A stretch of 39,803 nucleotides of DNA from an uncultured Candidatus Peribacteria bacterium (GCA_964437055.1 CAYTFB010000002.1:1-39803), one strand, 5' to 3'. Shown: positions 11,818-39,803, counted from the stretch's first letter. Made by a program: numbers and translations. Notes: generated by a model not told the origin, from the letters alone.

Positions 11818-11891
11818 TGCTATAGTTTATTTTCATATAATGTTTTTTTTGAATTCGTTTGGCTGCTCAATTTATCTTATATTAATTATTG

Positions 11892-13229
11892 ATGAAAGCA
11901 ATAACTAAGGCTTTAGAAAAGATGTCTTCTGCATTCAGAAACAAGAAGATTAGAAAAAAGATATTTTTCACTTTATTTATTTTGGCAATTTATAGGTTAC
12001 TAATTTTCATTCCAGTTCCTTTTGCAGATATTGCTTTATTGACTCAACAGACTCTTTGAACTAACTCTGATTTTTGATATTTTATGATGATGCTTTGAGG
12101 AGCATTAGAACAGTTTGCATTTATTGCTATTGGTATCTCTCCTTATATTACGGCTTCAATTATTATGCAGTTGATGGGAGTGGTAGTTCCTAGTATTGAA
12201 CAATTAACAGAACAGGGAGAGGTTGGACAAATTAAGATCAATCAATATACCAGATATTTAACAGTTCCTCTTGCATTCATTCAGGGAATTGGAGCAGTAT
12301 ATTTGATCAATAGCATCTTATGAGCAGGAGCGTTACCAATCATTGAAACTTCGTTAGTAAATGTATTGCTCTCTGGATTTGTGATGATGGTAGGATCAAT
12401 CTTGTTGATGCGACTTTGAGAATTAATTACAGAAAAAGGTATTTCAAATGGAATTTCTATGATTATCTTCTCTTCTATTGTAGCAGGGATTACACAACAA
12501 CTTTACGGATCAGTAACTACAAGTACGAATCTTTGGGGAATGCTTTTCTTTATGGTAGTAATTGTCGGAGTATTAGTGGTTCTTTCTATTTTGATTCTCA
12601 AATCTATTAAAGAAATCCCTATTATCTATGCTAAACAGGGACAAATACAACAATCTTCTCAGTTACCTATTCCTCTCAATCCGGTAGGAATGGTTCCAAT
12701 TATCTTTGCGATGGCTTTTGTTTCTTTTCCAAATCTTTTGGCAAAACTGATTACTCAATTTCATCCAGGAAATTTAAAATTAGTAGGAATAGCTGATTGG
12801 GTTAGTGCACATCTAAATATCTACTCTCAAAATCCAGGATTCCTTGCTGTATTTGTTTACCTGGTACTAATAGTACTGTTTACTTTCTTTTACGCTCTAA
12901 TTACTTTTAGTCCTGATAGGATCTCGGATAATATCCAAAAGAAGGGAGGATACGTTCCTGGAATCAGACCAGGTAATGCTACAGCAAAATATATCAATTC
13001 CATTTTAATGCATCTTTGCCTTTGGGGGTGAGTGGGATTAGGATTGATTGGAATCTATACCTATATTTTACAATGGATTCCATTTGTACAATCTATTGTG
13101 ACTGCAGTTGGTGGACTCCCAATGATTGTAGCAGGATCTGGAGTAATTATTATTGTAGGAGTGGTACAAGAAATTATCAACAAAATTGATGGAGACTTGG
13201 TGATGGAAAAATATGAAGCTTATGAATAA
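11892..13229 (+). CDS. secY: Preprotein translocase subunit SecY
   Basis: Starts MKAITKALEKMSSAFRNKKIRKKIFFTL..MMMLgGALEQFAFIAIGISPYITASIIMQL... It joins ORFs 12459..13031 and 13032..13229 with upstream pieces (offset 567 nt). At least six in-frame TGA. Confidence 0.95.
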
Positions 13230-13257
13230 TTAAATCATATTTTATAAAAAATAACTA

Positions 13258-13291
13258 AAAGACTGGTTTTGAAAAGAATCAGTCTTTTTTC
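13258..13291 (+). terminator. Rho-independent terminator after secY
   Basis: AAGACTG (13259-13265) pairs with CAGTCTT (13280-13286), followed by a T tract. Confidence 0.6.
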
Positions 13292-13445
13292 TACTCTAAA
13301 ATTTGTGTTTTTTTAAAAAAAGATTATACTTGTAATAAAGAATAGTTTAATTCAATTAAATTAATTCTTGAGATACTAAGTGCTTACTTGATTAAAGTTT
13401 TGTTAGTAAGGAATAAAATTTAATTGTCTCTATTTCCTTTTGCCT

Positions 13446-15638
13446 ATGAAAGAAACGATATTTTTTAATAAAGAACAGGTAAAGATTATCACTATCTACG
13501 GATGGATGTATAAGATAATTTTTAAATATGGAGTATATCTCTCAGCTTTTTTGTTTTCTATTATTATTTTGATTTTTTTCCCTGAGATAGCAAAAATAAA
13601 AAACTTTTCTCTAAAAAATACGGAAAATATTATCCCACAAATAAAAGCTATTGAAGATACTTTTTGAGAAAGAAATAGTTCTTTGAATGCTTTTGAAAAC
13701 TTACAATTTCCTATTATTGATGGAAAAATTTTGCTTGATTGAGATACTGTCTTTTCGGAAGATAATATCCTTATTTATAAAGAATCTCTTGTTTTGCCGA
13801 GAGTTACTAATGTTAGTCAAAAGAAACTGGACTACTATTATAATTTTTATGAAAATAAAACTTATAATCCTGCAATTATAGATGCTTTTTATAAGGAGGT
13901 TCTTCTTTATCCTTTGGTAAACCCTCCAGTGGTTAAATCACTTGATTTGCCTAAGCTTTATTTAAAGTGAAATATTAGATCAAATTTTTCTTTAGATTGT
14001 TTGGAAAATTCAAGCAAAAATTCTCCAATTTGTAAGTTCTATGTTAATGAATTTTTAGATACTTTTCCCTATTATAAATTAGATGCTTATTACTTAGATT
14101 TTAAAAATATTGTTTCTCATTTTTCTTCAAATCCCATTTATCATCAAAAAATTTGTGCTTGAATAAATAAGATGTTACAATTATGAGCAGAACCAGATAC
14201 TTTTTTGAGAAATATCGTTTATGATTGTGAGGATACTTATAGAAATGAATATCTTTTATGGAATGATTTTGAAGAAATAAAAAAATGACTAAGTATTGGA
14301 TATATTAATAATTCGGTATATGCAAGTTCCTTTTTAAATTATTATAAACTACTTTCTACTCAACAATTACTTTTAAAGCAGATAAGGGGATGAGAATCTA
14401 TCGCTTCTCTATTGTCTTCCTATTTATCTTTTTTAAAAGAGTTCCTAATCAAGGACTCTGCCTCAAAAGAAGGAAACTTTTTTGGATCCTTTTATAAGGG
14501 ACTTACTTATTGGTTTAATAACCAAATCTTGTTGCCAGTGCTAAATAATGAAAGTTCTAAAATTACCAAAGAACAAAAAAGTGCATTACTCAATGACCTG
14601 CTTATTATCAATAATTGAAATAAAAATATGGGATTTATTTGATTGCAAACTAGCATAGAGGGAGATATTGTTGCTAATGTAGATCAAAACAAAAATACTG
14701 GAACTCCTTCTCTTGATTTGGAAAAAATATTTAAAGATAATTATCTTCCGCCTCAGTTTGCATTACATTCTTCTGAATTAACATGAGAAAACTCTTTAAA
14801 AGTTATAGGAATTGATAAAAAATCAGAATTAGATTTAATTTTGCAATTAAAATTTGAGTGAAATATCTTGTATGTTGAAAAAATTGAGATTATTACAAAT
14901 GAAAAACTTGCGGATTATCTCAATATTTTGCTGAAAAACAATCGTTATACCCTTACAAGAGTTTTAGGACTAATAGAGGAACACCAAGATATTGCGATAG
15001 GGGAAGTTGAAAAAAGCTCTTTATGTGTGGAGATGAAGGAAAAATATTCTGAATTTTTATTTTCTTGTTCTCCTACGACTTTGGTGTTAAAAAATGAGGA
15101 AGAGGTTGCTTATACTTTTCATTTAATAAATAATCAATTAGTTGGGCTAAATATTTCTGATAAGATTTTAGAAAAACAGATCTTAGCTAGTATTGAATTT
15201 TCTGAAATTACAGCAACAAATTCTAAAGTATGGATTCATAGCATCTTTTCTTATAGGATAGAAGATGAGGAAGAAGGATATGGAATCAGGGCCAGTTTAC
15301 AGGTTTTAGATTCTTTTAGAACTTATCTTAATGTAGAACCTGATGATATTGTACATGATCATGGTGTTATTAGAGTCTACTTTACTGTTCAAAATATTAA
15401 GTTTATTGCAAGATATGATTTATCAAAAAATATTTTGTCTCAAGTTGGTTTTGATGTTTGAGTTTGGAAAGATTGAGTCGTGATCAAAAATTTTGAATTG
15501 GCTTTTTCAAAGGATGAATTAGAAAAGATTAATTCTTTTATTTTTGATCCTTTGGCTACGATAAAAAAGATCAACTCAACCGTTGTAGAAAAATATTTCG
15601 GTACTTGAGCTATCCTACTTCCAAAAGATCAATGGTAG
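13446..15638 (+). CDS. Orphan membrane-anchored/exported protein, about 730 aa (island protein P1)
   Basis: Joins ORFs 13440..13667, 14412..14618 and 14868..15461 (offsets 972 and 1428 nt) with unlisted pieces through 14 in-frame TGA. Stop is TAG at 15636. It has an N-terminal hydrophobic helix (YGVYLSAFLFSIIILIFFPEI) and 6 Cys. I recognise no family. Confidence 0.7.
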
Positions 15639-15688
15639 TTTTTTTCCAGTTAGACTTGATGAGTGTTAAAAAAAACTGGTCATTTTTT

Positions 15689-17617
15689 CTATGCTCTGGG
15701 TTTTTCTAAAACTCCATTGATAATACTGGTTCGTTCAATAACACTATTATTGAGATGTTCTAAAAATATTGCACTTTTTTCTAGAAAGTCTCGGATATTG
15801 AGCCAGTAATCAAGATCTTTTTCCTTGTATAATAGGTTATCTATGTAGAGTTCTTGTTGGATTTGAAAAGTATCAATTCTTATTGCCTCTGTTGGCGTAG
15901 GGTATTGGATTCTTTCGTTGTGATCCCATCAAAGGATATATTGATTGTTATCTAAAGCTGGGTTTAGTGTTTTGCTCTGAGTATAGTTGATGTTATCGAA
16001 AGTTTCCTGCCTTTGTTGTTGTTTCTTTAATGTTAGATCATTACTGATTGGTGTTTGTACAATATTGAATACAAATGAGGTAATTTCCGAAAACTTGAAT
16101 GTTTTAAGGCTACTATCTAGAAATTCTCTTTTTCTATTTCTGGTAGAAAGTTCTCATTTTTCTATGAGATTTTTTACTACAGAGTAAATTTCTTCTATAA
16201 AACTGTTAATTCCATAGAGTGTTTTTGTACCTTTATCTAAAGCTATTGGTTCGCTAGGAATGGTACAAAATCTGAGTCTAAAAGATCATTCCTCTAGTAA
16301 AGTAAAAGGATTTGGAGGGTTTGGAAGTGATGGTGAAATCAACAAAGAGCAGAGACAATCTAATCTACACACTAATTTAAGATCTAACGCTAGATCATCA
16401 CATTTTTTTGAACATTGACCAAGGTCTTCTAGCTGATTTTTTTGTTCTTCAGGATTTGTTGCTAGGTTGCTAGTTGAAGATCATTTCTCGCTAGAGAATT
16501 GGGGAGAAAAATTATACTTTAGTTGTTCTATTCGATCATTTTCTTTGATTGTATTGAGTAAATATTCTTCTAATTCTTTTTCTGAAAACTTTCCTAAATT
16601 TAGAATTTCATCTTCTAGAAAAAGGGGATCTTGGCCTTCTGGAATATCGCACTGATTGACAAAAAATGGTGCATCAATACTATTGTTCTCGTTTATGGAT
16701 GTTCAGTTTATTTTTTCTAAAAAATTATTGATTTCTGAATCTTGAAAGATTGTCTGATTTTGATTTTTTTCTCAAAAATTATTTAGATTTTCTATATCTG
16801 TAGTTATTCCATCTTCTGTTCAATTACTTTCTTGGTTCTTACTGTTGTTAGAAAAATTTGATGTTATTCCTCCTTCTGGACTTGATTGAGAAGAAGATTG
16901 TGTTGATGCAAAAAGAGGAGTTCTATAAAAAATAAGTTCTAAATCTTCATTACCTTCTTCTCCAAAAAGTATTTTTTTGATATGAATGATATCATAAAGG
17001 ATATCAAAGGGACTATCTTCAATACTATTGTTTAAATATTTATCCATTCCTTTGTTGCTATCATTGATGTTTTCTTGATTTTCAAAATAACTAATCCCTT
17101 GAAGATAAAAGTTATTGACGGTATGATTACAGTCAAATGATAAAAGTTTGCTTGGAGATCCTTGGATACAATTGCTTATTTGATTACAAATATTCAAATA
17201 TTCTTTTCATTGAGGGGTTTTAAAATTTTCTATATATTTTTTTTCTAGTTCTAGATCTATTTCTTTTTGAAAATCATTATTGCTAAAATAGAGGATTGTT
17301 GCAATATTAGGAAAGTTTTGAACACAAGATGGAAAGTTTTCTTCTATCCTTTTCTGGGCAAACTGAACTCAATATAAGAGTTTTTTTATAGAATTTCGTT
17401 GATTACTTTCAAGGTTTTGCTTGAAAATGTTAAATTGTATACTATTATTGACCATATTTTTATTGTCTTCATTTTCTTGGTAGGTTTCACTTCGTTCTTT
17501 AAAGAGTCCATTGATATTTTTTTGTGCATTTACTGGTTGCATAAAAACTATTCCACCTATGAGGAGAATCCAAAAAAGAAATCAGATTTTTATCTTATTT
17601 GTCTTGAATTTGTACAT
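15689..17617 (-). CDS. Orphan secreted protein, about 642 aa (island protein P2)
   Basis: Extends ORF 16820..17197(-) in both directions through about 10 in-frame TGA. ATG is at 17615-17617 and the stop is TAG at 15689-15691. The N-terminus MYKFKTNKIKIgFLFWILLIGGIVFMQPVNAQ looks like a signal peptide. About 11 Cys. I recognise no family. Confidence 0.7.
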
Positions 17618-18749
17618 TTCTTACTTTTTCATAGATATTATAAAAAGGAGTAATTAACTTGCTTAGTCACTTATCTCTCATACGCAAAAGGTCTTCCTGG
17701 TGACTCAATAATCCAATATGAACTATGTAGCTATTATGAAAATCTAAAAGATCTCTAATACTCTGGTGGATTGTTTCATACATGACATTTAGATTCTTTG
17801 GAATTTCAATCAATTCTTGTTGTTCTAAGCTAGTAATATTGTTTGGTTCTCTATCAGAAATATATTGATTGTAATAAGATAAGAAGAGTTGATACCGGAG
17901 TACTTCATTGTAAATTACATTTATGAACGGTTTTAATCAGCTTTCAGTCTCTCCTACAGTTCAGCATAAAATAATATTATATTCATCTGGATATTTTTCG
18001 AGGTCACAGGTTCTCAAAACTTCACCTTTTTCTCTTATTTGAGCTTGCTTTAAAAGACTGTCAATCTTAAAGATTCTTAGCTGCTTTAGGCTCGTATAGT
18101 ATCATTTGATATGTCCCTCCCAAATATTGCATGTCTTTGGATAATTATGGGTTTTATCACTACAAAATCCTTGAATCATAAATGATTCGTAGGCTAGATC
18201 ATCGATCTTTTGTTGTATTTCTTTGTTATCTGTAGCAACGAGAGTTAGTCCAATACTGCGAGCTTGCTGGAGAATAAAAAGTTCTTCTAAAATATCACTC
18301 AGAATTTTTTTTGTTATGAGAGGAATATTGCAGGTTTCTTGATACTTTTCTGGACAATAATCTTCATATCATAGTTTGATAAAATTACTATGTTTGAGAT
18401 ATTGTTCTTCAGATTCTCACAAAAAATCAGCAAAACTTTCTTGATACTTGAGTCACTGATTGTTGCACAAAAGGTATAAAAACACCGATTGTTTTGCATC
18501 ATAATTTCGGTATCTAGAGCCAATTTGATTGCTGTTGTTTGGGTCCAACATTGTCTGGCAATAGTCATTAATGAGATTTCTTTTGCCAACTGATCTATTT
18601 TTCCCTCTTACTAGTTGAGTATTTATTTGGTTGATAAGATAAGAGAATGAAAAACTATTTGAGAGATCATAGTCAAAAGAAAAGCTAAGATTATTGTTTA
18701 GCAATCCTAGAATAAGTAGTGTGATTAAACTAAATTGTAGTTTTTTCAT
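17595..18749 (-). CDS. Orphan secreted protein, about 384 aa (island protein P3)
   Basis: Extends ORF 18453..18749(-) through TGA at 18453, 18417, 18369, 18102, 17961, 17937 and 17667 to TAA at 17595-17597. The N-terminus is MKKLQFSLITLLILGLLNNNLS. 8 Cys. The last 23 nt overlap the P2 start. Confidence 0.65.
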
Positions 18750-18783
18750 ATTTATATTGGTGGTGCTAAATATGCTATAGATT

Positions 18784-20469
18784 TTATGGGATATAACATC
18801 CCTTTGTTCCCTTATTTTGTGCTTGAAATGTACATCGTTGGTTTACTACGTATCTGAGTCCATGGTCTTTATTTCCAATACTATAAATAACACGCTTGAT
18901 ACTATTAGAGAGTTCTCAAAATTTAAAGGTGATTCCTGCAGGGAGAGTATCTTGGCTATAATATTTGTCTAAATTTTGCTCCTGCTGCAATCTTAAAAGT
19001 CAGCTGATCATTGCTAGATTAAAAGCATCTTTTGCTGATTCATTTGGAAAGTCTTCTTGGAATCTCTCTAAAATATCTTGGGCATTTTTTTGTTCTATCA
19101 AATTAATAATTGAATTAGCCTCCTGAAGAGATAAATCTTTGATTAATTGTTTTTCTAGATCTCTTTTTGATATTTTATCTCCTTTCTTGAGTATACTAGT
19201 AGTTGTTTCTCTAAAGTTTTTAAATGTTTTTTTGACATTAGCCCATGATTGATTAGAATTTTCTGAAAAAATTTTAGCACTATCTTGTATATGGTTGATG
19301 GTTGTGATAGTGCTATCTCTTGTATTATACAGATCATTTTTCATATCTAAAAAATTATTTCTCGTCTGTTTTGATATATTTAAAATTGATAGTTTGTTTT
19401 CTCTTGTTATTTGTGATGTTTTGATGCCATAGACACTCCTTAGTAGTTCCTTTTCTCTTTCACTCAGATAGGGTTCTGTATCTTTCCCTTTGATATTATT
19501 CCAAACTCCTTTAGGAGTTAGCATTAAAGCCTCCCAAAGATTTATTCCGGCTTGTTTGATTATTTCTCGAGAGTTGCTAGTTTCTTCTCAGAAATTTTTA
19601 AAGATCCCCTTGGTGTTGGTAGAAAATTTTTGAAAAGATTTGTTGCATTTAAATCCAAATCATGCTCTAGTTCCGATATAATCCTCTTTTATTTCATTAG
19701 CTCGATCTGGATGAAAATAAATGGTAAAATCTGTTTGAGCTGGCTTTCCTTCTGCTTTTTTATCGTCTGGTTCCAAAGATACTCCTCGTAGAAGAAAGTA
19801 TTTTACTTTGGTGTTTTGCCATCCAAGAAAAGAAAGCAAGTTTGCATAGCTGGTACTATTGCTAAAATGGCTATTTTCTGAAAATAATCCTTGTTGTTTA
19901 TAATATTCTATCAATTGTTGAAATTCTTGGGTATTAGATATTTTTCTGGTGAGAAGATCATCTTTCCCTATATAGTAGATAAGTTTGCTGACCTCTCGTT
20001 CTAGGTCCATTATCTTTGCTCGATCTCTGAGGATAGGCCTTTCAGCGAAGAGTATTTTAATTGTTGAAAAGGGAGAACTGATCGCTGTACTTACTGCACT
20101 TACAGCAAATAAAAGACTTGTGGTAGCGGTTTGAATAATAAGTTTACTTGTACTATTACCTATATGAGCAAGGATATTACTGATAGTATTGTTAGAATTT
20201 AGTTGTAATACTCCATGGCTAAATAATCCAGACTCTAGTTGTCCAATATTAGCAATTTCGAGTGGGAATGATTTTTTCGCAATAAGATTAATTGCTTCTC
20301 TTTGAAAATCCATAAAAAGTTGCATTGTTTGAGGAGTACTCGAACAAACAAGTGGATAATCAGTGATGTTGGAATTTTTATTTTGAGCAAAAATAGGATA
20401 GGGAATAATATTTCCCAAAAAAATAATGGACATGATGAACCAGATTCCTATTTTTTTTCTTTGCATCAA
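18784..20469 (-). CDS. Orphan secreted protein, about 561 aa (island protein P4)
   Basis: ORFs 19660..20469(-) and 19000..19524(-) share a frame and are linked through TGA at 19660, 19588, 19000 and 18916. Stop is TAA at 18784. The N-terminus MMQRKKIGIWFIMSIIFLGNIIPYPIFAQ looks like a signal peptide (the ATG is one codon inside the TTG at 20469). The C-terminal half is K/E/N/S-rich and looks helical. Confidence 0.7.
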
Positions 20470-20518
20470 TCAAATTCAATATTAAATTGTTATTTTTTTG
20501 ATTTATCGCTTTTATCTC

Positions 20519-20546
20519 TTGAAAAAAAGAGTATTTTAATTATATA
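20519..20546 (+). promoter_or_regulatory. Candidate promoter for frr (TTGAAA-N16-TATATA) in the divergent P4/frr spacer
   Basis: TTGAAA at 20519-20524 and TATATA at 20541-20546. Motif match only, in AT-rich DNA. Confidence 0.3.
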
Positions 20547-20584
20547 CAAATATGATTCTTTTTATCAAGTAATAATACATTATT

Positions 20585-21133
20585 ATGGATTTGAAAAACT
20601 ACGAACAAGCAATGCAAAAAGCTTTAGATTTTCTCTTGCGTGAGTTTTCATGATTGCAGGTTGGGAGGGCTACGAGTTGATTGGTAGAAAATCTCAATGT
20701 AGATACTGATTATGGAACGATGAAACTTAATGCTTTGGGACATATTACCGTTATGGATACTACCACTCTCAAGATAGAACCACGAGATAAAACCAATGCA
20801 AAATCCATTACTAATGCAATCTATGAAGCAAATCTTGGAGTAGGAGTTGATAATCAGGGTTCTCATATTTTGGTAAAAATTCCGGCATTGACCCAGGAGA
20901 GGAGAGAGGCAATTACCAAACAAGTTAAAGCGATGGGAGAAGAAACCAAAGCTCAGATTAGGTTGGTGAGACAAGATGCAATGTCGATATCTAAAAAACT
21001 TTTTGGAGACAAAGAAATTTCAGAAGATGCTCACAAAGTAAATGAAAATAATATTGAAAATCTGACTAAACAAATGAATCTCAAGGTAGATGAAGTGGTA
21101 AAGGTGAAATCTGAAGAAGTGATGAAGTTATAA
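20585..21133 (+). CDS. frr: Ribosome recycling factor
   Basis: Starts MDLKNYEQAMQKALDFLLREFSgLQVGRATSgLVENLNVDTDYG... It joins ORF 20681..21133 (offset 96 nt). It also reads ..IPALTQERREAITKQVK.. and ..ISEDAHK... Confidence 0.92.
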
Positions 21134-21159: not shown

Positions 21160-21966
21160 ATGAATCGATTCAAGATTCTTTGGGCAGAAATCCTATATCG
21201 CCCAATCTTCAATTTATTGGTGATTTTTCTAGCAATTTTCTGAGGGAATTTGGGACTTGCTATTGTTTTTCTTACTTTGGTAGTGAGATTTGCTCTGATA
21301 AAAACTAGCGTTGCTGGAGCAAATATGGGAGCAGGAATGTCCAAAATTCAACCTAAAATGGAAGAGATTCAAAAAAAATATGCGGATAATCCTGAAAAAA
21401 TATCAGAGGAAACTATGAAACTTCTCAAAAAAGAAGGAGGAGCCCCACTCAAAGGGTGTTTGGGAATGTTGGTACAATTGCCAGTATTTATCTGACTTTT
21501 CTTTGTGGTTAGACAATTTGTAGCAGGGACGGTACCTGCAGATTGGCTTTATAGCTTTTTTTGGAGTTTTGGAAATAAATATCTAGATGTTGCAAATATT
21601 AATGCTAATTTTTTAGGAATTAATCTTTTTGAGACTGGAAATTGGATTCTTACAGGATTAGTTGCTATCCTCAATTATATTCAGTTTCAATTGACTAGTC
21701 TCACTCAAAAAAATGCTCCGGCACAAAACTCAAATATCCCTGGTGTAAAGATGCCCGATATGTCAAAAATGATGGGAATGATGAATATTATGATGACTGC
21801 GATGATGGCGACTTTTGTATATTCTGTACAATCGGCGGTAGGAATTTATATTCTTACTACTTCGGTATTTAGTATCGTTCAGTACAGTATTCAGTATAGG
21901 GTTTTGCTCAGAGCAAAATGGGATAGTATTTTTCACAAAGACAAACCACAAATCATTTCTAAATAA
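21160..21966 (+). CDS. yidC: Membrane protein insertase YidC/Oxa1 family (short form)
   Basis: Joins ORFs 21250..21495 and 21505..21966 with an upstream piece (offsets 90 and 345 nt). It reads ..LAIVFLTLVVRFALIKTS..KIQPKMEEIQKKYADNPEK..GCLGMLVQLPVFIgLFF... Confidence 0.88.
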
Positions 21967-21997: not shown

Positions 21998-22339
21998 ATG
22001 GCAAGTAGGACTAATAAACAAGGAATTGCAAAAAAGAAAGCTCAACAGCAAAAGCAAGCAAGTAGACTAAAAGGAGCAAAAAGATTTGACTATCCAAGGA
22101 GAAAGTTGGATTTGGAAGAGGCAAAAATGCTTTGAGTCGTTGGAGAGTGGGTAAATCCTAGATGAGCTACTTACAATTGGTTTTTAAGAGGGAGAAAAGT
22201 TTGTTGGGAAACAAGGATGAGACTTGATCCAGATGGATATAGATATATTAGGACTCCTTCTGGAGGTTCAGAAATGGTTTCTGTATCGGCTTCTGGTTGG
22301 GTGAGAACCAAACTTAAAAAATCTTTGAGAACTAGATAG
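21998..22339 (+). CDS. Small, very basic orphan protein (113 aa)
   Basis: Starts MASRTNKQGIAKKKAQQQKQASRLKGAKRF..MLgVVGEWVNPRgATYNWFLRGRKVCWETR... Two in-frame TGA, stop TAG at 22337. I recognise no family. Confidence 0.6.
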
Positions 22340-22370: not shown

Positions 22371-22402
22371 AGAGAGATTGTGCTATTCAGTCTCTTTTTT
22401 TT
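22371..22402 (+). terminator. Rho-independent terminator after the small basic ORF
   Basis: AGAGAGATTG (22371-22380) pairs with CAGTCTCTTT (22388-22397), allowing G-U pairs, and runs into a T tract. Confidence 0.5.
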
Positions 22403-22428
22403 GACAAGAAAAAAACTTTGGATATACT
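22401..22428 (+). promoter_or_regulatory. Near-consensus promoter TTGACA-N16-TATACT upstream of the AMP phosphorylase gene
   Basis: TTGACA at 22401-22406 and TATACT at 22423-22428, about 40 nt upstream of the start codon. Confidence 0.5.
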
Positions 22429-22464
22429 TGACACTGAAAGTTTTATTTTATTTTTTATATCAAA

Positions 22465-24027
22465 GTGATGATTACAAAAAAAACCAAACAAAAAGTCGTA
22501 AAAAATGGATTTAATGAAGTATTAGAGTCTTTTTATTTAGCAAAAGTTCAGCTCCTAGATATCAGAGATGGAGAAAAAATGATCATCCTCCTCAATCCCA
22601 AACAAGCTACTGCTTTTGGGATCAATATCCATGATAGAGTAAGTTTGATCAGGGAAAATGATGAAAAACTTGTAGTAGAGGTTGGATTTTCTGCTGCTGT
22701 TGCTGAGTGACATGTGGCACTCTTTGCTGATGTGACAGAACAAGTTGCATTTAAAAATAATGAAATAATTGCTATCAAGTTGGCAGAAAGTTCTAGTATT
22801 GCGAATAATGCTATTAGGAAAAAAATGAAAGGAGAAGCAATTTCTTATGATGAAATGTTTGCGATTATCAAAGATATTTCAGAAAATAAACTAGATGAAA
22901 TTATGATGACTTACTATGTAGCATCCAGTTTTTTCTATCCTACGACAGATCTAGAGATGTATCAGACCGCTAAAGCGATGGCAGAAAATGGAGAAATGTT
23001 TCGTTACCCTGAGGGAGAAATTGTCGCGGATAAGCACTGTATTGGAGGAGTACCTGGAAATGAGACAACGATGATTTTGATTCCTTTGATTGCGAGTTTG
23101 GGGATCAAGATTCCTAAAAACTTTTCCAAATCCATTACCTCTCCGGCAGCTACAGGAGAATGTGTAAATGTATTGATGGATATTTCTTTCAATAGAACTG
23201 AGATAGAACAATTGGTTCAGGATTTGAATTGTTGTTTGGTTCGATGAGGAGGATTAGCACTAGCGCCGGCAGATGATAAACTCATCAAAGTGCAGTATCC
23301 TCTCTCCATGCAATCAAGAGCAAAGGTAGTAAGTTCGATTATGGCCAAAAAATATGCGATGGGAATCACTCATTTATTGATTGATGTGCCAGTAGGTCCA
23401 ACTGCGAAAGTCACTACCATGGAAGAAGCAAAGGACTGGAAAAAGAAATTTGAATATGTGGGGAAAAAACTCTGAATCCTAACAAAAGTAGCAATTACTC
23501 CAGCAAATGAAGTGATCTGAAATGGAGTAGGTGCAAAATTACAGGTCCGTGAAGTACTGAGGGTATTACAACAACACCCTTTGAGACCGAAAGATTTGGA
23601 AGAAAAAACTCTCCTTTTGGCACAAGATCTCATTGAGATGGTTGGTTTGGCGAAAGGAAAGGTAGCATACAAATTGGCAAAAGAACAGCTCACTTCTGGT
23701 AAAGCTCGAGCAAAAATGCAAGAAATTATCCAGGTACAGAGAGGAAATCCGGAAATTACTTCAGAAGCTTTAGAACTCTGAAAAGCTACCCAAGAGATGC
23801 TTGCAGAAAAAGATGGAAAAGTTACTGCGATCAATCTTCATGATGTTAATTTAATCTCTAGAAAATTAGGTTGTCCAATCATTGATGAAGCAGGAATGTA
23901 CTTGCATAAAAAAATCGGAGATCCCGTAAAGAAAGGAGAGCCACTTTGTACGCTCTATGCAGATGATGAGACAAAGCTTGGATTTGGAGTAGAAAGATTT
24001 AAAGAAGGAAGTCCTTTTGAATATTAA
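22465..24027 (+). CDS. deoA: AMP phosphorylase-like, archaeal-type member of the thymidine phosphorylase family (about 520 aa)
   Basis: Five track ORFs (22465, 22714, 23290, 23581, 23797) share one frame (offsets 249, 825, 1116 and 1332 nt) and are joined by TGA. It reads ..[25 protein letters not shown].., ..[14 protein letters not shown].. and ..[22 protein letters not shown]... It also has the extra N-terminal domain typical of AMP phosphorylases ([38 protein letters not shown]). Confidence 0.85.
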
Positions 24028-24636: not shown

Positions 24637-25581
24637 CTAAATTTTGGTAGTATCCCAAGGTCTCCATCCTTGGTAATAAAGTTCTTGCTTTCCTTGGCTG
24701 AGATATTTTCCTAGAAAGAGATTTGCGAGAAAGTTATATTTTTTATTGAGTACTGGATTGTCTTTCCCTATTTCTTGAAAGAGTTGGTTATTGGTGAGAT
24801 AGAGATTGAAACACTCTGCGAAATCCTCAAAAGGATTGCTCATCCCATATCCACTACAGAAGTCCTCTTTCTTTGCCTTTTCTTGTCTGATATCTTCCGT
24901 CCATCGTGAATAACGATAAAACTCCAAGGAAGGATCATCTATCTCAAAAACAGTCCTACCAAATTCTGTAAAATTTCCATTTTTGGCTCTACTTTTTCCT
25001 TGCAAACTTCCCAGATCCACGATATGTCCAAACTCATGGACCAAAACTTTATAAAATTCAGAAAGATCTGCAAAAGATGCGAGATTGATGGTTATTTTTT
25101 CCCAAGTAGCTCCTCAGCGCCTATTTCCGAGTGCATTATTGATGATTAGATGTTTGAATACCTCTTTTAGACTTTTCCCTTTACTAAGTGAACTCTGGAG
25201 AAAACTATAAATCTCTAGATGATTTTGAAAAGTCAGATTTTGATCTGCTATGGAGATTGTTCCAGAATAGATAATTTTTTCACAGAGCTGAGGATAGTTT
25301 GGGCAGGTTTCTGCAAAAGAAAGTTGGGAAAAATCCAGATTTCAAAATCCTTTGGGACTAAAGTGTTCTAGGTTGTTTTCAATCTCCTCTAGCTCTTTAT
25401 CTGAATTATTTTCTATCTTTTCTTCAACTTGTTCTAGAGGAAGATATTCTTGCTGGATCATGCTGTTAGGATTGCCTACATCTTTGCTAAAAATTACTAA
25501 TCATAAAAAACATAGCAGTGTGGCTCCTAGGAGTTTATAAATCTCATACTGATGTTTGTGGACCCAAGAGCGTAGCTCCAT
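24637..25581 (-). CDS. Membrane-anchored zinc metallopeptidase-like protein (HEFGH ... EDFAE)
   Basis: Extends ORF 24637..25044(-) upstream through TGA at 25114, 25342 and 25501. It has an HExxH motif (VLVHEFGHIVD) and a downstream NPFEDFAECF that could supply a third ligand (gluzincin-like). The N-terminus MELRSWVHKHQYEIYKLLGATLLCFLgLVIFS contains a TM helix. The start at 25579-25581 is tentative. Stop is TAG at 24637. Confidence 0.7.
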
Positions 25582-27748
25582 ACCAGAGAATATCATGTAA
25601 AATCGTGGCTTGTTGTTTACCTTTATTATTATACACAATTAGATCAAAAATTGCAACTTTTTGAGCAAAAAGCTGGAGTAAAAAATTATAACCACCGATG
25701 ATAATTGTTTTCCCTTGTTGTTGAGCTTTAAAAATATTTTTTCCCACACCACCAGTGATATTTTCTACCAAGAGAGTATATTCTTTGTCAAATCCTGCTG
25801 CTATCAGAGATTCAAAGATTTCTTTAGATTCTGTTTTGATGACTGAGAGGATAAAAATGGTTGCATTGGGAGCTTTACTGAGATCAAAATGCTGAATTCT
25901 TTGTTTGATTGCAGGGATTTTCAAGGCAGGAAGTTCTAGTTTTGGGAGATTTTTGTTTTGAGATTTTTCTGCTTCTTGAGTGATGGTTTCAGGGAGAAGT
26001 AACTGTCTTACTTGATCATGATGGCTGAGGAAAAGCGTATGATGTGAAGCAAAGATATCCAAAAACTCTTCCCAATTGGTAAAGCTTGTCTCTTGAGCAT
26101 AGAGAAAATAAAATCCTGACTTTTCATACATTTTCTTTTCTACCTTCATCAATCCTTGGAAAATTTCTAGCATTTCAAAAAATTGTTTCCATAAGGTGCT
26201 AAATTCTTCTGGATTGAGTAATTTTTCCAAAAACATTTCATAGTTTCTGAGTTTTTCGATCAATTTATTACTCTGATAAAAAGCGATATTGCCGATGATA
26301 GGATTTAAGGTGATTTCGCTGGCATCAGTATGGGTAAAAAATCTTTTCGTTTCTTGTCCCAAGATTCCGATAAACATCAAAAATTCCTGCTGAAAATTTA
26401 CGAGATGAGCATAGTCAGAATCATGGATTTTGTTGTATTCTAGCTGTAGTTGATATTTATATACGAGCATCTCGATATAATTGATGGTATAGTTTGGATC
26501 ATAAGGGCGAGAACGAAAAAAGTTATAATTTTTGTATCGCCATTCAGTATCAAAAAAGATAATTCCATAATCTTCAAATGCTTTTTCTCTATTTTCTAGA
26601 AACGCAAACAATCCCCCATGAGTGGTTAAAATGAGAGGATAGTTTACGGATTCTCTTTGATCTTTGAGGGCGGTGTAGATTTCATAATTTGCTTTGCTAT
26701 TGAGATCTAGTACTCCTAGTCCCTGTTCTAGATGAGAAAAATATTTGATCAAAAACAAAAATTCTAAAAAATTAAACTGCTCTTTATTGACGAAATCTTC
26801 TAATGCTTGCCTATTCAAGGTTTGTTCCGGTTTGAGGAATCCTAAGTTTTTGATCCCCATTTCGTTGAGAATGTTTTTTGCAATCGCAAACTTTGCTTGA
26901 TTGGAAAAGGCAAGAATCAATTTTTGCTGTTTGGCAAATGCTTGCAAGAGTAGTTTGAGTTTGAGATGATCGTAGCGATATCTTTGCCCATGGGGGTAGT
27001 TTTTGAGATCAAAATCATAATCAGATTCTTTGATGCTGGTATTGGCTGGACTGATTTTTTTGAGGGGAGGAATGCTGATTTTATCATTACTTTCTCAGTT
27101 TTGAGGATCATTAAGATAAAAAAAATCAGAATCTGTTTTTTGAAAGGTTTGCCAAAGTTGTGGATAGTTTTCTCCAATCAAATAAATGCGCTCGATGAGG
27201 TAGAGGAAGAGTGATGCGGTCAACTTTGCATCAAAAAGTGCATCATGAAAATTTGCTCCTTGATTGAGATTACAGCCAAATTCTTTGCAATATTTACTGA
27301 AATTCCCCTGGATTGAGAGTTTTTCTACCAAGACCTCCAATGCATAGCTAGGAGTGTAATGGATTAAACTTTGTGCTAAGGGAAATGTATCAATACTCGC
27401 AAACCATTTAAGTGAAGGAAAGAACTTTTGTAAAAAATGGGTATCAAAGGCAATATTGTGTCCTACAATGACCGTATTTTCTCAGAAAAAATGCTCAATC
27501 TCTTCCACGATTTGTGCTGGATAAGGTGCTTTTTGGAGTTGTTCTAGAGAGAGTCCTGTGATAAATCCAACGATACTTTTGAGTTGTTGAGTGTCTCTTT
27601 GAGGTTTTAAGAGTGATTGAAAAGATTGCAACAACTTTCCTTGTGGATCAAATTCTAGTATTCCAATTTGGATAGGCTCATCACAATCCAAATCTAATCC
27701 GGTAGTTTCAAAGTCTAGAGCCAAGTAGCGATAGTTGGGATTGAGCAT
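25535..27748 (-). CDS. dinG: DnaQ-type 3'-5' exonuclease fused to a DinG-like helicase-like domain (about 737 aa)
   Basis: ORFs 27482..27748, 27095..27340 and 25544..26947 (all minus strand) share a frame and are joined through TGA at 27482, 27095 and 25544. Stop is TAA at 25535. Exonuclease motifs are LALDFETTGLD, VGHNIAFDTHFL and HDALFDA. The C-terminal two thirds are colinear with DinG-type proteins, but I could not find a GxGKS/T Walker A or a DEAH box. Confidence 0.75.
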
Positions 27749-36135: not shown

Positions 36136-37305
36136 ATGTTAATAATTTTTGTTTTTTGAGTGGTTTTGTTGGTGATAGCCTTATTGTTTGCTATGTTTTC
36201 CTCATTTATGCCTTTTATGGAAAAGTTTGGAGATGCTGTGGAGTACAATACAGCATATTATGGAGCACTTTCTGCAGTAGAGAGAGGAGCTTTGGTTTTA
36301 AGATATAGAGGCCCTGGTTTTGATGGAGAATCGGGATGGATTTATTCAGGAACCAATATTAATACAGGAAATCAGGCAGATGAATATTTGCCAGAATTCT
36401 ATACTTATGGAGCAGGTGCTACGGATATGTATCGAAAAATTCGTTCTCGTACCACAGAAATACCATTTGTTGGTGAAGGAAATGTAGAAAAAATATTTAT
36501 CAACCCTTTGAGTGAAGATAGTTTGACGAGTCGTGATTATAATGCTTTAGATTATGGTATTTCAGAAATTATTCCTTTAGGAGTTGACATTGACGCTACT
36601 ACTACTTGAGCTTATTATTCAGGTTGAAATAAAAATTTTAAAGCAAACTGATTTAATTTATCAGGAAGTTTTAGATTGAATCCTTTTTTGGTAAGTAATT
36701 TTATTGAAAAGCAAGGTTTGCTATCTAAAGCAGAGTTATGTATCAATGATTTGGAGGGTTGTAATTATGATGCTAGAGGATTATCTGATTTGCCAGTTGT
36801 TTCTTGGAGTCTGAAGGGTGAATACGATGGAGCACAATTTACACTCTTACCGAAAGAAGCGGTGATTTTTGGAACAACTCAAACTCCATTAGTTTTATCT
36901 TCAGATACTCTTCTCAGAAAAAGCAGAATAAATGAACAAAATAATTTTATTTTAGGAGATAACTCTAATCCTTTTGATATAACTTCTCCAAATCCTCCTT
37001 TAAATATTGTTTCTGAAAGAGAACAAGATATGCTAGATAGTGGTATAGAAACCTATCAAAATATTTTTTCTCATCCTAGTACTCAAAATGGAGTACTCAA
37101 TCTTTCTTTAGTTAATTTTTTGATTAGTAATATGGGAGGGGTATATCCTTTCTTGGAGTATCAGTTTACCTCAGATGCTCCTATTTCAGATCGTTTTTTT
37201 AGATTAGATGGACATGGAAAGGTTGGAGCTTATGATGTGTTGATTCGTGTATATAAACCGACTTTAGAACAACCTTCCGTAGGAAGTTTTACAATTATTT
37301 TTTAG
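36136..37305 (+). CDS. Orphan membrane-anchored protein (about 389 aa)
   Basis: Starts MLIIFVFgVVLLVIALLFAMFSSF... It joins ORFs 36160..36609 and 36676..37305 (offsets 24 and 540 nt) through TGA. I recognise no family. Confidence 0.65.
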
Positions 37306-37325: not shown

Positions 37326-38561
37326 ATGAGACGTGAGTTAGTTCAGGTTTTTGCTTTGGCGGGATTTTGAATTTTGACTTCTATTTTTACACTTTATATT
37401 TCCTTTGGATCTTTAGAAAAGGAAACTACAGATAGCGTTGTTATAGATGATTCTAGACTTTACTCGGGGACTTCAAGTGAGGATTTATGAGCAAAAGATT
37501 TTTCCTCAGATGAGCTTTTTTTGTCAATCCCTGATAATTTATGGAATAGTGGATTCCAGAATTTTCTCCTTAATTTTCAGGAAAATTATTGAGCAAAAGT
37601 TACTTTAGATTTTTACTGAGAAAATGTATCTTCTGCTCACTCTTTTTCTGGAATAGATGTTGCTTTAGTTGCTTATGAAATGCTTGATAGTTTGATAACA
37701 GAAGAGGTACATTTCCAAGAAAATCTCTCAGCATTATTTCATCCAGCACTTAATGCAATTTTTGAACAAAGAGCAGACTTTTTGCCTTATGCTTTAGATC
37801 CTTTACTAACCTTTTCTTTTCAAAAGTTAGACTTCCCTTTTAGGTTATCGGAGTTTTCCAACTATCTTGCTTCTTGGAAAAAAAAGCATAGATTTGCAAT
37901 TCCTTTTCTTTGATTTTTAAAAAAGGATGGGCTAGAAAAAAATAATCAGATTTTTGCTTTTTGGATAGATCGTTTATTACAGGTAAATGATATTTCTGGC
38001 TTTAAAATCTTTGTAGAAAATTATGCTCAAACTTTGGATGAAACTGAGTTTAGTTTGAGTTTTTTAGAAAAGTCAGAAATCTGATCTACTTGCCTTCAAA
38101 ATCAAGCTCTCTGTTTGTTTGTACAAGGAATTGTTGATCTCTATTTTGGTACTTTTTCAGATCGAAAAACTCTTGAGCTTTTGATGAAAGATTTGGATAG
38201 TACTCAGCGTAAGCTAGAGATTACAAGTTTCCCTTATCAAGTATTTGGATATCCTACTAAGCTTTATGGATTAGTGGTATTGTCTGGACAAAGTTCTCCT
38301 TTGACGGATCAGTTTCTTTTAGACTATTTGCAGTTAATGTTTCAGGATGATTTGAGTCTCCGAGAAAATTCTTTTTCTGCATTCAAAGACCTTTATGATC
38401 AGCAGTGCCAAGAGTCAGTTTTTTGTAAGCTTTTTACTCAGCTAGATCTTCTAGATCTATGAAATCAAAGAGTGAATGAGGTTTTATCTGATCCTTTCTT
38501 GATCAATATTTTACAGAAAAAACTTGACCCAAGCTTGTTTTTTAAAAATACATCCTTATAA
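37326..38561 (+). CDS. Orphan membrane-anchored protein (about 411 aa)
   Basis: Starts MRRELVQVFALAGFgILTSIFTLYISF... It joins ORFs 37680..37913 and 38115..38462 (offsets 354 and 789 nt). Stop is TAA at 38559. It shows only a faint solute-binding-protein-like pattern (..DFLPYALDPLLTFSFQKL..), which is not enough for a call. Confidence 0.6.
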
Positions 38562-39421: not shown

Positions 39422-39803
39422 ATGTATAAAAGGTTTTCTCTATCTGATCTTGGACAAATTCAAAATAATTTGATTCCTCATTTTTATGATCTTCTCAAAA
39501 AAGAGAGATTACAATCAGCAAATGAGTTTTTTAAGATTGCATTCAAGGAGGGAAATCATCTTTATTATTTCAATAGAGGAGATATTGCATTTAGGGTTTC
39601 TTATGATCCTGAGTGAGATCTCTTATTTCTTCATGATGAGATAGATAAAATTGAGATTGTTCTACCTTTTGCAGAAAGAGCGAAAATCCAAAATTTACTA
39701 AAAAATTATATTGTCAAAAAAGAAAGACAATTAGGTCAAAAAACAATTGAAGAGATTTTGATGGAAGAGTTTAAAGCAGGAGCTTATACTCAGATTTTGG
39801 GAA
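39422..39803 (+). CDS. Orphan protein, 5' part only (runs off the window)
   Basis: Starts MYKRFSLSDLGQIQNNLIPHFYDLLKKE... ORF 39410..39616 continues through a TGA (..SYDPEgDLLFLHDEIDK..) to the window end. Confidence 0.55.

Follow-up and report, generated by a model that had tools for sequence, protein, structure and literature searches.

Gene content of the interval between secY and frr

The subject of this study is the interval between secY and frr in a stretch of DNA of 39,803 nucleotides, here called the window, which is deposited for an uncultured Candidatus Peribacteria bacterium (GCA_964437055.1 CAYTFB010000002.1:1-39803). The interval is 7.35 kb long and holds four genes, P1, P4, P3 and P2, for which export from the cytoplasm is predicted. 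The secY of the window shares 97% identity with its counterpart in the metagenome-assembled genome (MAG) CAYIZS01 (GCA_964367985.1) and 72-76% with those of human-oral SR1 genomes, e.g. HOT-345. These identities place the window in an Absconditabacteria (SR1) genome; towards MAGs labelled as Gracilibacteria the identity is 35-38%. The relatives of the window are human oral according to their record names and probably from rumen or gut according to the name tags of the MAGs alone. Loci used for comparison are designated by L numbers.

Long open reading frames (ORFs) occur in the window only when TGA is read as a sense codon. With translation table 25, the following features were found in and next to the interval:

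11889-13229, + strand: secY (Pfam SecY, E 3.9e-78), with which the ribosomal-protein cluster of this genome ends
13257-13294, + strand: intrinsic terminator 3' of secY, with a 14-bp stem, a 4-nt loop and a U-run (hairpin 13257-13288)
13446-15638, + strand: P1, 730 aa, table 25 ORF whose open frame begins at TTG 13440
15639-15688: convergent spacer of 50 bp between the stop codons of P1 and P4, AT-rich, with a weak CCAGTT/AACTGG hairpin
15689-17617, - strand: P4, 642 aa, table 25 ORF with 10 in-frame TGA
17595-18749, - strand: P3, 384 aa, table 25 ORF with 7 in-frame TGA
18784-20469, - strand: P2, 561 aa, table 25 ORF with 4 in-frame TGA, first gene of the minus-strand operon
20539-20568, - strand: promoter-like site TTGATA-18-TATAAT (11/12 consensus matches) in the 115-bp spacer that separates the divergent genes P2 and frr
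20585-21133, + strand: frr (Pfam RRF, E 2.9e-42)
21160-21966, + strand: yidC (Pfam 60KD_IMP, E 1.3e-38)

An earlier note on this DNA had described four ORFs of 730, 642, 384 and 561 aa (P1, P4, P3 and P2), a gap of 34 bp between P3 and P2, an overlap of 23 nt between P4 and P3, a total of 35 in-frame TGA (14, 10, 7 and 4 in P1, P4, P3 and P2) and, in the same order, 6, 11, 8 and 4 cysteines. All of these values were reproduced under table 25, and Pfam matches confirmed that the core genes frr and yidC follow directly after the cluster. The N-terminal signal peptide or anchor that had been claimed for each of the four proteins was likewise found by a hydropathy and motif heuristic, and all cysteines lie within the mature parts. 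The note had recognised no family for any of the four, and in our searches of P1-P4 against Pfam-A, NCBIfam, PHROGs and PDB sequences no significant match was obtained.

A sister species (loci L047-L050) shows an identical gene order, secY-P1-P4-P3-P2-frr-yidC, followed by a 113-aa ORF and a nucleoside-phosphorylase-like gene. The ratio of nonsynonymous to synonymous substitution rates (dN/dS), calculated after Nei-Gojobori against this species, is 0.066 for P1, 0.139 for P4, 0.062 for P3 and 0.086 for P2, compared to 0.030 for secY, 0.118 for rplO and 0.074 for the phosphorylase-like gene. The dS of P1-P4 is 0.62-0.82, and their amino-acid divergence is about 3-6 times that of secY (dN 0.047-0.087 vs 0.015). 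Of the 35 in-frame TGA codons, 32 align with a TGA of the sister species, and five swaps between TGA and GGN were observed. Codons that are mostly kept and that exchange with GGN fit the reading of UGA as glycine. TGA makes up 37-41% of the glycine codons in P1, P4 and P3, 14% in P2 and 0-25% in housekeeping genes. The claim that the four genes evolved inside a lineage with UGA=Gly is therefore well founded.

AT-rich DNA with two stop codons yields many long spurious ORFs, and overlapping ones are present in the window. The four ORFs could accordingly be regarded as chance open frames or decaying pseudogenes that are open only through TGA read-through, but the probability of this is practically negligible. 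ORFs without expression or purifying selection, combined with a universal gene order after secY, had been named in the earlier note as evidence against its reading; instead, dN/dS values of 0.06-0.14 were found at a dS of 0.6-0.8. In addition, full-length orthologues occur in up to five lineages, cysteine residues are invariant, and a confident AlphaFold model was obtained for P1 from a family alignment of 59 sequences. The comparison of dN/dS and TGA positions with the sister species refutes the reading as chance frames or pseudogenes, and judged by these substitution patterns P1-P4 are clearly genuine genes under purifying selection.

The P1 family and its neighbourhood

Since homologues of P1 begin with MKE(T/S)IFFN, the ATG at 13446 is likely to be the true start of the gene, which yields 730 aa. 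Hydropathy analysis revealed one strongly hydrophobic segment (residues 32-50) and no second membrane segment. By this heuristic, P1 would be a bitopic membrane protein whose short conserved cytoplasmic N-tail and single transmembrane helix precede an ectodomain of some 680 aa with six conserved cysteines.

When 1.84 billion representatives were searched exhaustively by profile, at least 263 representative clusters fell into the P1 family at E<=1e-3, including 95 at E<=1e-30. Nearly all matches are 710-775 aa in length and align end to end, most of them spanning profile positions ~10-723. The designation of P1 as an orphan in the earlier note thus no longer applies. Nine members of 879-973 aa carry N-terminal extensions. 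An N-terminal extension of about 200 aa is present in the L054 homologue, which has a gene for a DsbA-like thioredoxin in its vicinity (L054 5330-10922, 13337-14287).

In contrast to the profile search, a word-indexed search for P1 gave three clusters only. Searches of this type yielded no more than 2-3 clusters for each protein and overlooked the P4 of L043 (38% identity), which is present in the collection. The misses are explained by the public collection translating TGA as tryptophan and by low-complexity words rich in Asn, Lys and Ser that use up the 8000 candidates allowed. Given that a known homologue was missed, low match counts are no evidence of orphan status. Collections that translate TGA as tryptophan make recoded proteins look more orphan in word-indexed searches than they are. 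Scans of JGI metagenomes with the P3 and P4 profiles yielded no match, and second-round hidden Markov models (HMMs) of P4 and P3 detected no further homologues in the 58 loci compared.

An alignment of 59 family members with an identity of about 20% was used to analyse conservation in P1. C165, C176, C217, C507 and C521 are invariant and C241 is conserved in 98% of the members, with a median of six cysteines per member. All 59 members feature an N-terminal hydrophobic 19-mer within the first ~100 aa. Other highly conserved positions are aromatic residues, Pro, Asn, Lys and Ser; no conserved Asp, Glu or His was found in the alignment. The lack of such residues favours a structural or binding role over an enzymatic one, and P1 is most likely a structural or binding component and not an enzyme. 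None of the family members matched Pfam above noise. Five family genes were inspected and contain 5-38 in-frame TGA on contigs with a G + C content of 18-31%, from which it follows that the family lives in recoded lineages.

The AlphaFold model of P1, based on the 59-member alignment, reached a mean predicted local distance difference test (pLDDT) score of 86.5 and a predicted template modelling (pTM) score of 0.61. Behind the transmembrane helix, the model shows a small domain of beta structure, then a large domain of helices (about 300 residues) carrying two of the cysteine pairs, and finally mixed alpha/beta domains. Comparison of the model with the PDB by Foldseek revealed nothing similar (best E 0.2, template modelling score <=0.14; threshold E<=1e-3), and the same holds for BFVD (best E 1.4e-3 with a template modelling score of 0.09; scores <=0.12). 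Structure prediction had been suggested in the earlier note as a check for housekeeping families; for P1 it gave a confident model and no match to such a fold in PDB or BFVD. Taken at the level of sequence and model, P1 represents an old, widespread and uncharacterised family of UGA-recoded, low-GC bacteria.

P1 and the convergent genes P4 and P3 (P1 -> <- P4 <- P3) were found in five lineages. The first comprises the window and L042, a near-identical strain with the same arrangement, and the second the sister species L047-L050. In the lineage L043-L045, P1 is 50%, P4 38% and P3 60% identical to the proteins of the window. L055 features a P1 with 35% identity as well as P4 (HMM E 1e-77) and P3 (E 9e-42), with the C-terminus of secY located upstream. 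The fifth lineage, L056, has a P1 of 30% identity and a P4 (HMM E 2e-33) within which the contig stops; secY is not found upstream. Conservation of the arrangement down to 30% identity of P1 points to an old linked module, and on these comparisons P1, P4 and P3 form a module that is vertically inherited. P4 and P3, which had also been called orphans, recur beside P1 in five lineages.

Other genes were observed next to P1 as well. In L004 (13740-21312) and L002 (6553-9690), the slot after secY-P1 is occupied by a lipoprotein-like gene (LTGC lipobox) and a gene for a cysteine-rich secreted protein of 758-817 aa without Pfam match; further on in the same region, a DUF4012 gene and a sortase gene are found. 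The region adjoining P1 seems to collect genes for exported proteins. A PF13482 RNase-H-like gene lies directly downstream of the P1-family gene in L046, L051, L052 and probably L053. The start of a PF13482 (RNase_H_2-like) gene is also present in the window (39422-39802, + strand), where it is cut by the window end and located 24 kb from P1.

The N-termini of P4, P3 and P2 are of the n-h-c type according to the heuristic used. P4 has a putative signal peptide ending in VNA|Q with a hydropathy peak at residues 11-29, P2 has one ending in IFA|Q with a peak at residues 9-27, and P3 starts with MKK and a hydrophobic run of 14 residues. A hydropathy scan revealed no second membrane segment in any of the three proteins, and neither a lipobox nor an LPXTG motif was detected in P1-P4 by regular-expression scan. 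P4 is composed of an N-terminal domain (residues 32-240, 4 Cys), a linker (241-395) and a C-terminal domain (396-642, 6 Cys). The linker is fast-evolving, acidic and rich in Asn, Ser and Glu, while both flanking domains are conserved. All 11 cysteines of P4 are invariant in three lineages; P4 of L055 (27% identity) keeps ten of them, with the eleventh shifted by 5 residues. The identity of P3 is 60% in L043 and 36% in L055.

The 23-nt overlap, in which the stop of P3 lies inside the start of P4, is kept in three lineages, including L047 and L043. An overlap of this kind implies coupled translation, and P3 and P4 are probably translationally coupled. P2 is a basic protein (net charge +16) with 4 Cys, whose orthologue was seen only in the sister species (86-89% identity); the contigs of the other lineages end before the position of P2. 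Residues ~108-140 of P2, read by eye, are moderately hydrophobic and remain below the hydropathy cut-off used. The promoter-like site 5' of P2 was the best in the region in a consensus scan, the number of such sites not being above shuffle expectation. A terminator was not substantiated in the spacer between P1 and P4, where folds are no better than those of shuffled sequences (z = -0.6, -0.1).

No significant similarity was found among P1-P4, nor did the profiles of P2, P3 and P4 yield anything significant against the P1 family. A Cys-x10-12-Cys loop occurs in P1 (~187-198), P3 (196-207) and P4 (150-163); with an hhalign probability below 1%, it is not evidence of homology. In P1 (C..C.FYVNEF) and P4 (C..CNHTVNNFY) the loop is followed by an aromatic/Asn-rich helix.

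The end of the ribosomal gene cluster at secY

The window shares with the canonical S10-spc-alpha superoperon (secY-adk-map-infA-rpmJ-rpsM-rpsK-rpsD-rpoA-rplQ) the part upstream, where the cluster is complete from tuf and rpsJ via rplO to secY. It differs in the terminator after secY and in the lack of adk, map, infA, rpsM and rpoA. The terminator, which had been noted before, was substantiated as a 14-bp hairpin with a U-run and a predicted folding energy of -15.2 kcal/mol (z = -4.08 against 200 shuffles, of which one was as stable). Probes for adk, map, infA, rpsM, rpsK, rpsD, rpoA and rplQ gave no tblastn match in the window downstream of secY, although the same probes do detect their targets in outgroups and in L009-L011.

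For comparison, 10-kb flanks around secY from 41 genomes were surveyed with probes for gatA, infC, rplT, rplU, infA, rpsM, rpsK, rpsD, rpoA, rplQ, adk and map, and counts were restricted to loci with at least 4 kb downstream. Within 10 kb 3' of secY, adk, map, infA, rpsM and rpoA are absent from 17 of 20 SR1-like and 9 of 9 Gracilibacteria-like loci; the other genes probed were likewise not found in the flanks of these loci. The gene adk was found directly after secY only in the non-recoded outgroups L035-L037, L039 and L040, followed by map in L035 and L036. The SR1 relatives L009-L011 show the order secY-gatA-infC-rplT-rplU-infA-rpsM-rpsK-rpsD-rpoA-rplQ...adk. The genes 3' of secY vary: some relatives have P1 there, L003 and L005 the phosphorylase-like gene, and the rest other genes.

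According to the earlier note, the superoperon is cut after secY by an island comprising P1-P4. Since the cluster already stops at secY in nearly all of the recoded loci counted, the break is a lineage trait that is older than the P1-P4 cluster. It is a separate trait of the examined lineages and not caused by the four genes. An end at secY is normal in these lineages, which corrects an easy misreading of the locus. One of the surveyed records, L015 (JAEEWY010000029.1), is binned as 'Methanobrevibacter sp. Tb.RUG.508' and is probably mis-binned; it carries an SR1-type secY with 64% identity to that of the window.

Recent acquisition of the segment as a mobile or phage-derived island, with a split of the superoperon, would be in line with the G + C content of the cluster (0.27-0.32), which is slightly below that of the flanking genes (0.33-0.40), with the lack of curated families and with the differing content 3' of secY among relatives. 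Nevertheless, such an origin is very improbable. Only short, chance-level direct or inverted repeats flank the cluster, no tRNA gene is located at it (those of the window lie only at 550-849), and neither an integrase-like ORF nor an Rfam element was found in 13230-20584. Phage families are not represented among the proteins by any PHROG match, and scans of IMG/VR with P4, P3 and P2 revealed no relatives. The insertion assumed in the earlier note thus left none of these marks, and the mobile-element reading was rejected. Heavy use of UGA=Gly at conserved positions also argues against it, as do the presence of the cluster in the same order where secY is only 85% and P1 only 30-50% identical and a superoperon that stops at secY in nearly every recoded relative. 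Across lineages, P1, P4 and P3 lose identity in step with secY.

Proposed role of the cluster

We consider it probable that the cluster encodes a Sec-exported, disulfide-bonded envelope or surface module, vertically inherited in an SR1 genome, with P1 as the anchor and P4, P3 and perhaps P2 as secreted components. In this proposal, P1-P4 would be exported through Sec/YidC and would fold oxidatively outside the membrane, the ectodomain of P1 being held by three conserved cysteine pairs. The DsbA-like gene near the P1 homologue of L054 can be cited beside the proposed oxidative folding. P3 and P4, made in coupled amounts by way of the 23-nt overlap, would assemble, possibly with P2, into an extracellular complex that lacks a covalent anchor and is retained at the surface by the ectodomain of P1. 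The complex would then serve the envelope or the contact with a host bacterium. We infer disulfide bonding, complex formation and surface retention of P1-P4 from the features described above; a role of the cluster in contact with a host bacterium is speculative, though in keeping with what has been described for cultured relatives (PMC8080830) and with the hypothetical-protein modules reported from animal-associated SR1 clades (PMC8406219). The earlier suggestion of cell-surface or host-interaction machinery is plausible in this respect.

Several observations weigh against the proposal. P1 occurs without adjacent P4 and P3 in L002, L004, L046, L051-L054, L057 and L058, and its function is therefore independent of these proteins. 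The conserved order of P1, P4 and P3 could reflect inherited synteny, with no physical contact between the proteins. The P2-P3-P4 operon converges on P1 and is hence not co-transcribed with it. The number of cysteines in P4 is odd (11), and the signal peptides of the cluster were called by hydropathy and motif alone. The AlphaFold model of P2, calculated from a four-sequence alignment, has a pLDDT of 34.8, so that its mostly helical fold is of low confidence and unusable. Finally, P1 homologues are located beside penicillin-binding proteins in L054 and L057 (L057 2929-6924), a context that suggests a role in the cell wall and not in host contact.

The latter context leads to a different explanation, in which P1 is a housekeeping envelope or cell-wall factor (a partner of penicillin-binding proteins, the divisome or Sec/YidC) and P4, P3 and P2 are clade-specific accessories without a host role. 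This is possible, if on balance somewhat unlikely. The broad P1 family and its low dN/dS (0.066) are consistent with it, as are the class A penicillin-binding protein adjoining the homologue in L057, the transpeptidase in L054, a faint CHAP-domain neighbour in L052 and the position of P1 between secY and yidC in the clade of the window. On the other hand, the neighbourhood of P1 is not constant, and the PF13482 nuclease-like gene is its commonest neighbour. Adjacency to penicillin-binding proteins was found in only 2 of ~13 contexts, in small and dense genomes, and no wall-related domain or fold was detected for P1 in Pfam or PDB. A cell-wall connection of P1 is a live alternative to the surface module.

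P2, P3 and P4 might also be released as effectors that attack the host bacterium, for instance as lytic factors or as a pore-former of several components, and P1 would then be unrelated to them. This would account for three signal-peptide proteins in one operon without anchor, lipobox or LPXTG motif, and for the basic character of P2 with its low-confidence helices and its sub-threshold hydrophobic stretch. Predation with secreted lytic enzymes is described for cultured relatives (PMC8080830). We nonetheless regard effectors of this kind as unlikely. No match to toxin or hydrolase families was found in Pfam, PDB or PADLOC-type searches, the confidence of the P2 model is too low for a reading of its fold, and the adjacency to P1, kept in five lineages, suggests a link. 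In tripartite alpha-pore-forming toxins (Hbl, Nhe, AhlABC/SmhABC), the components are paralogous and share a ClyA-like fold. The likeness of the cluster to these systems, taken only as a lead, consists in a three-gene operon of secreted proteins and in the internal moderately hydrophobic stretch of P2. Unlike the components of Hbl, Nhe and Ahl, P2, P3 and P4 are not mutual paralogues, since they show neither pairwise nor profile similarity, and they lack a Pfam or PDB-sequence match.

Absconditabacteria are obligate epibionts or predators. Little is known about the machinery by which they contact a host, and most proteins that they export are unannotated. The cluster is of an ordinary kind for such genomes, namely a group of exported, functionally uncharacterised proteins specific to the lineage. 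What deserves interest is the large, structurally unmatched family of membrane-anchored P1 proteins together with a deeply conserved neighbourhood of secreted partners. A far-reaching version of the surface module, in which P1 represents a previously undescribed class of anchored, disulfide-stabilised ectoproteins of new architecture, widespread among candidate-phyla bacteria with UGA=Gly, that in one subclade dock the co-inherited P4-P3(-P2) complex as a new apparatus for host attachment or recognition and thereby for host range, appears quite unlikely.

Small modules that encode hypothetical proteins have been described as acquired or retained in animal-associated clades of Absconditabacteria and Gracilibacteria (Jaffe et al. 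2021, mBio, PMC8406219). These modules resemble the cluster as clade-restricted, unannotated families of SR1-type genomes that are vertical within a subclade. They were analysed by presence and absence of families, whereas the module of the window has a fixed gene order by P1; furthermore, P1 itself is not clade-restricted, with at least 263 clusters. For Vampirococcus lugosii, an elaborate cell surface with large membrane proteins was described (Moreira et al. 2021, Nat Commun, PMC8080830). It is likewise a UGA-recoded SR1-type organism, and the organism of the window is presumably epibiotic like its cultured relatives. In both cases exported or membrane proteins without metabolic role are proposed for host contact. 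The candidates of Vampirococcus are giant proteins of 1392-4163 aa and contain recognisable domains for adhesion or interaction, among them WD40, PKD, integrin and fibronectin domains (PMC8080830), whereas P1-P4 are 384-730 aa long and feature no recognisable domain. The locus offers a concrete and conserved candidate for the surface biology of Absconditabacteria. If the link between P1, P4 and P3 is functional, it would provide a testable handle on envelope and host interaction in a barely culturable group.

Further genes of the window were recorded. Between yidC and the phosphorylase-like gene, a very basic 113-aa ORF without Pfam match is located at 21998-22339 (+ strand). Its identity to the sister-species version is 96.5% and its dN/dS 0.035, a constraint like that of secY, and it may encode an unrecognised RNA-binding or ribosome-associated protein. 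The nucleoside/AMP-phosphorylase-like gene (Glycos_transf_3 and PYNP_C; 22378-24027, + strand) lies 9 kb downstream of secY and directly after it in L003 (11441-13033) and L005 (5739-7310). The first ~29 codons of its ORF are probably untranslated, as the orthologue is called at 519 aa. The gene fits the AMP-salvage pathway reported for SR1 (PMC8080830).

A protein of 333 aa, encoded on the minus strand at 24637-25638 and hydrophobic in an N-terminal segment by eye, has a putative Zn-metallopeptidase domain (Peptidase_Mx1, E 7e-6, HEFGH) and is another candidate exported enzyme near the cluster. Two adjacent genes (36136-37305 and 37326-38561, + strand) encode proteins of 389 and 411 aa with an N-terminal hydrophobic anchor by eye and no Pfam family; they may form a further envelope pair specific to the lineage. 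A cluster of genes for tRNA-Phe, tRNA-Ile and tRNA-Pro (550-849, + strand) heads the ribosomal gene block, upstream of tuf.

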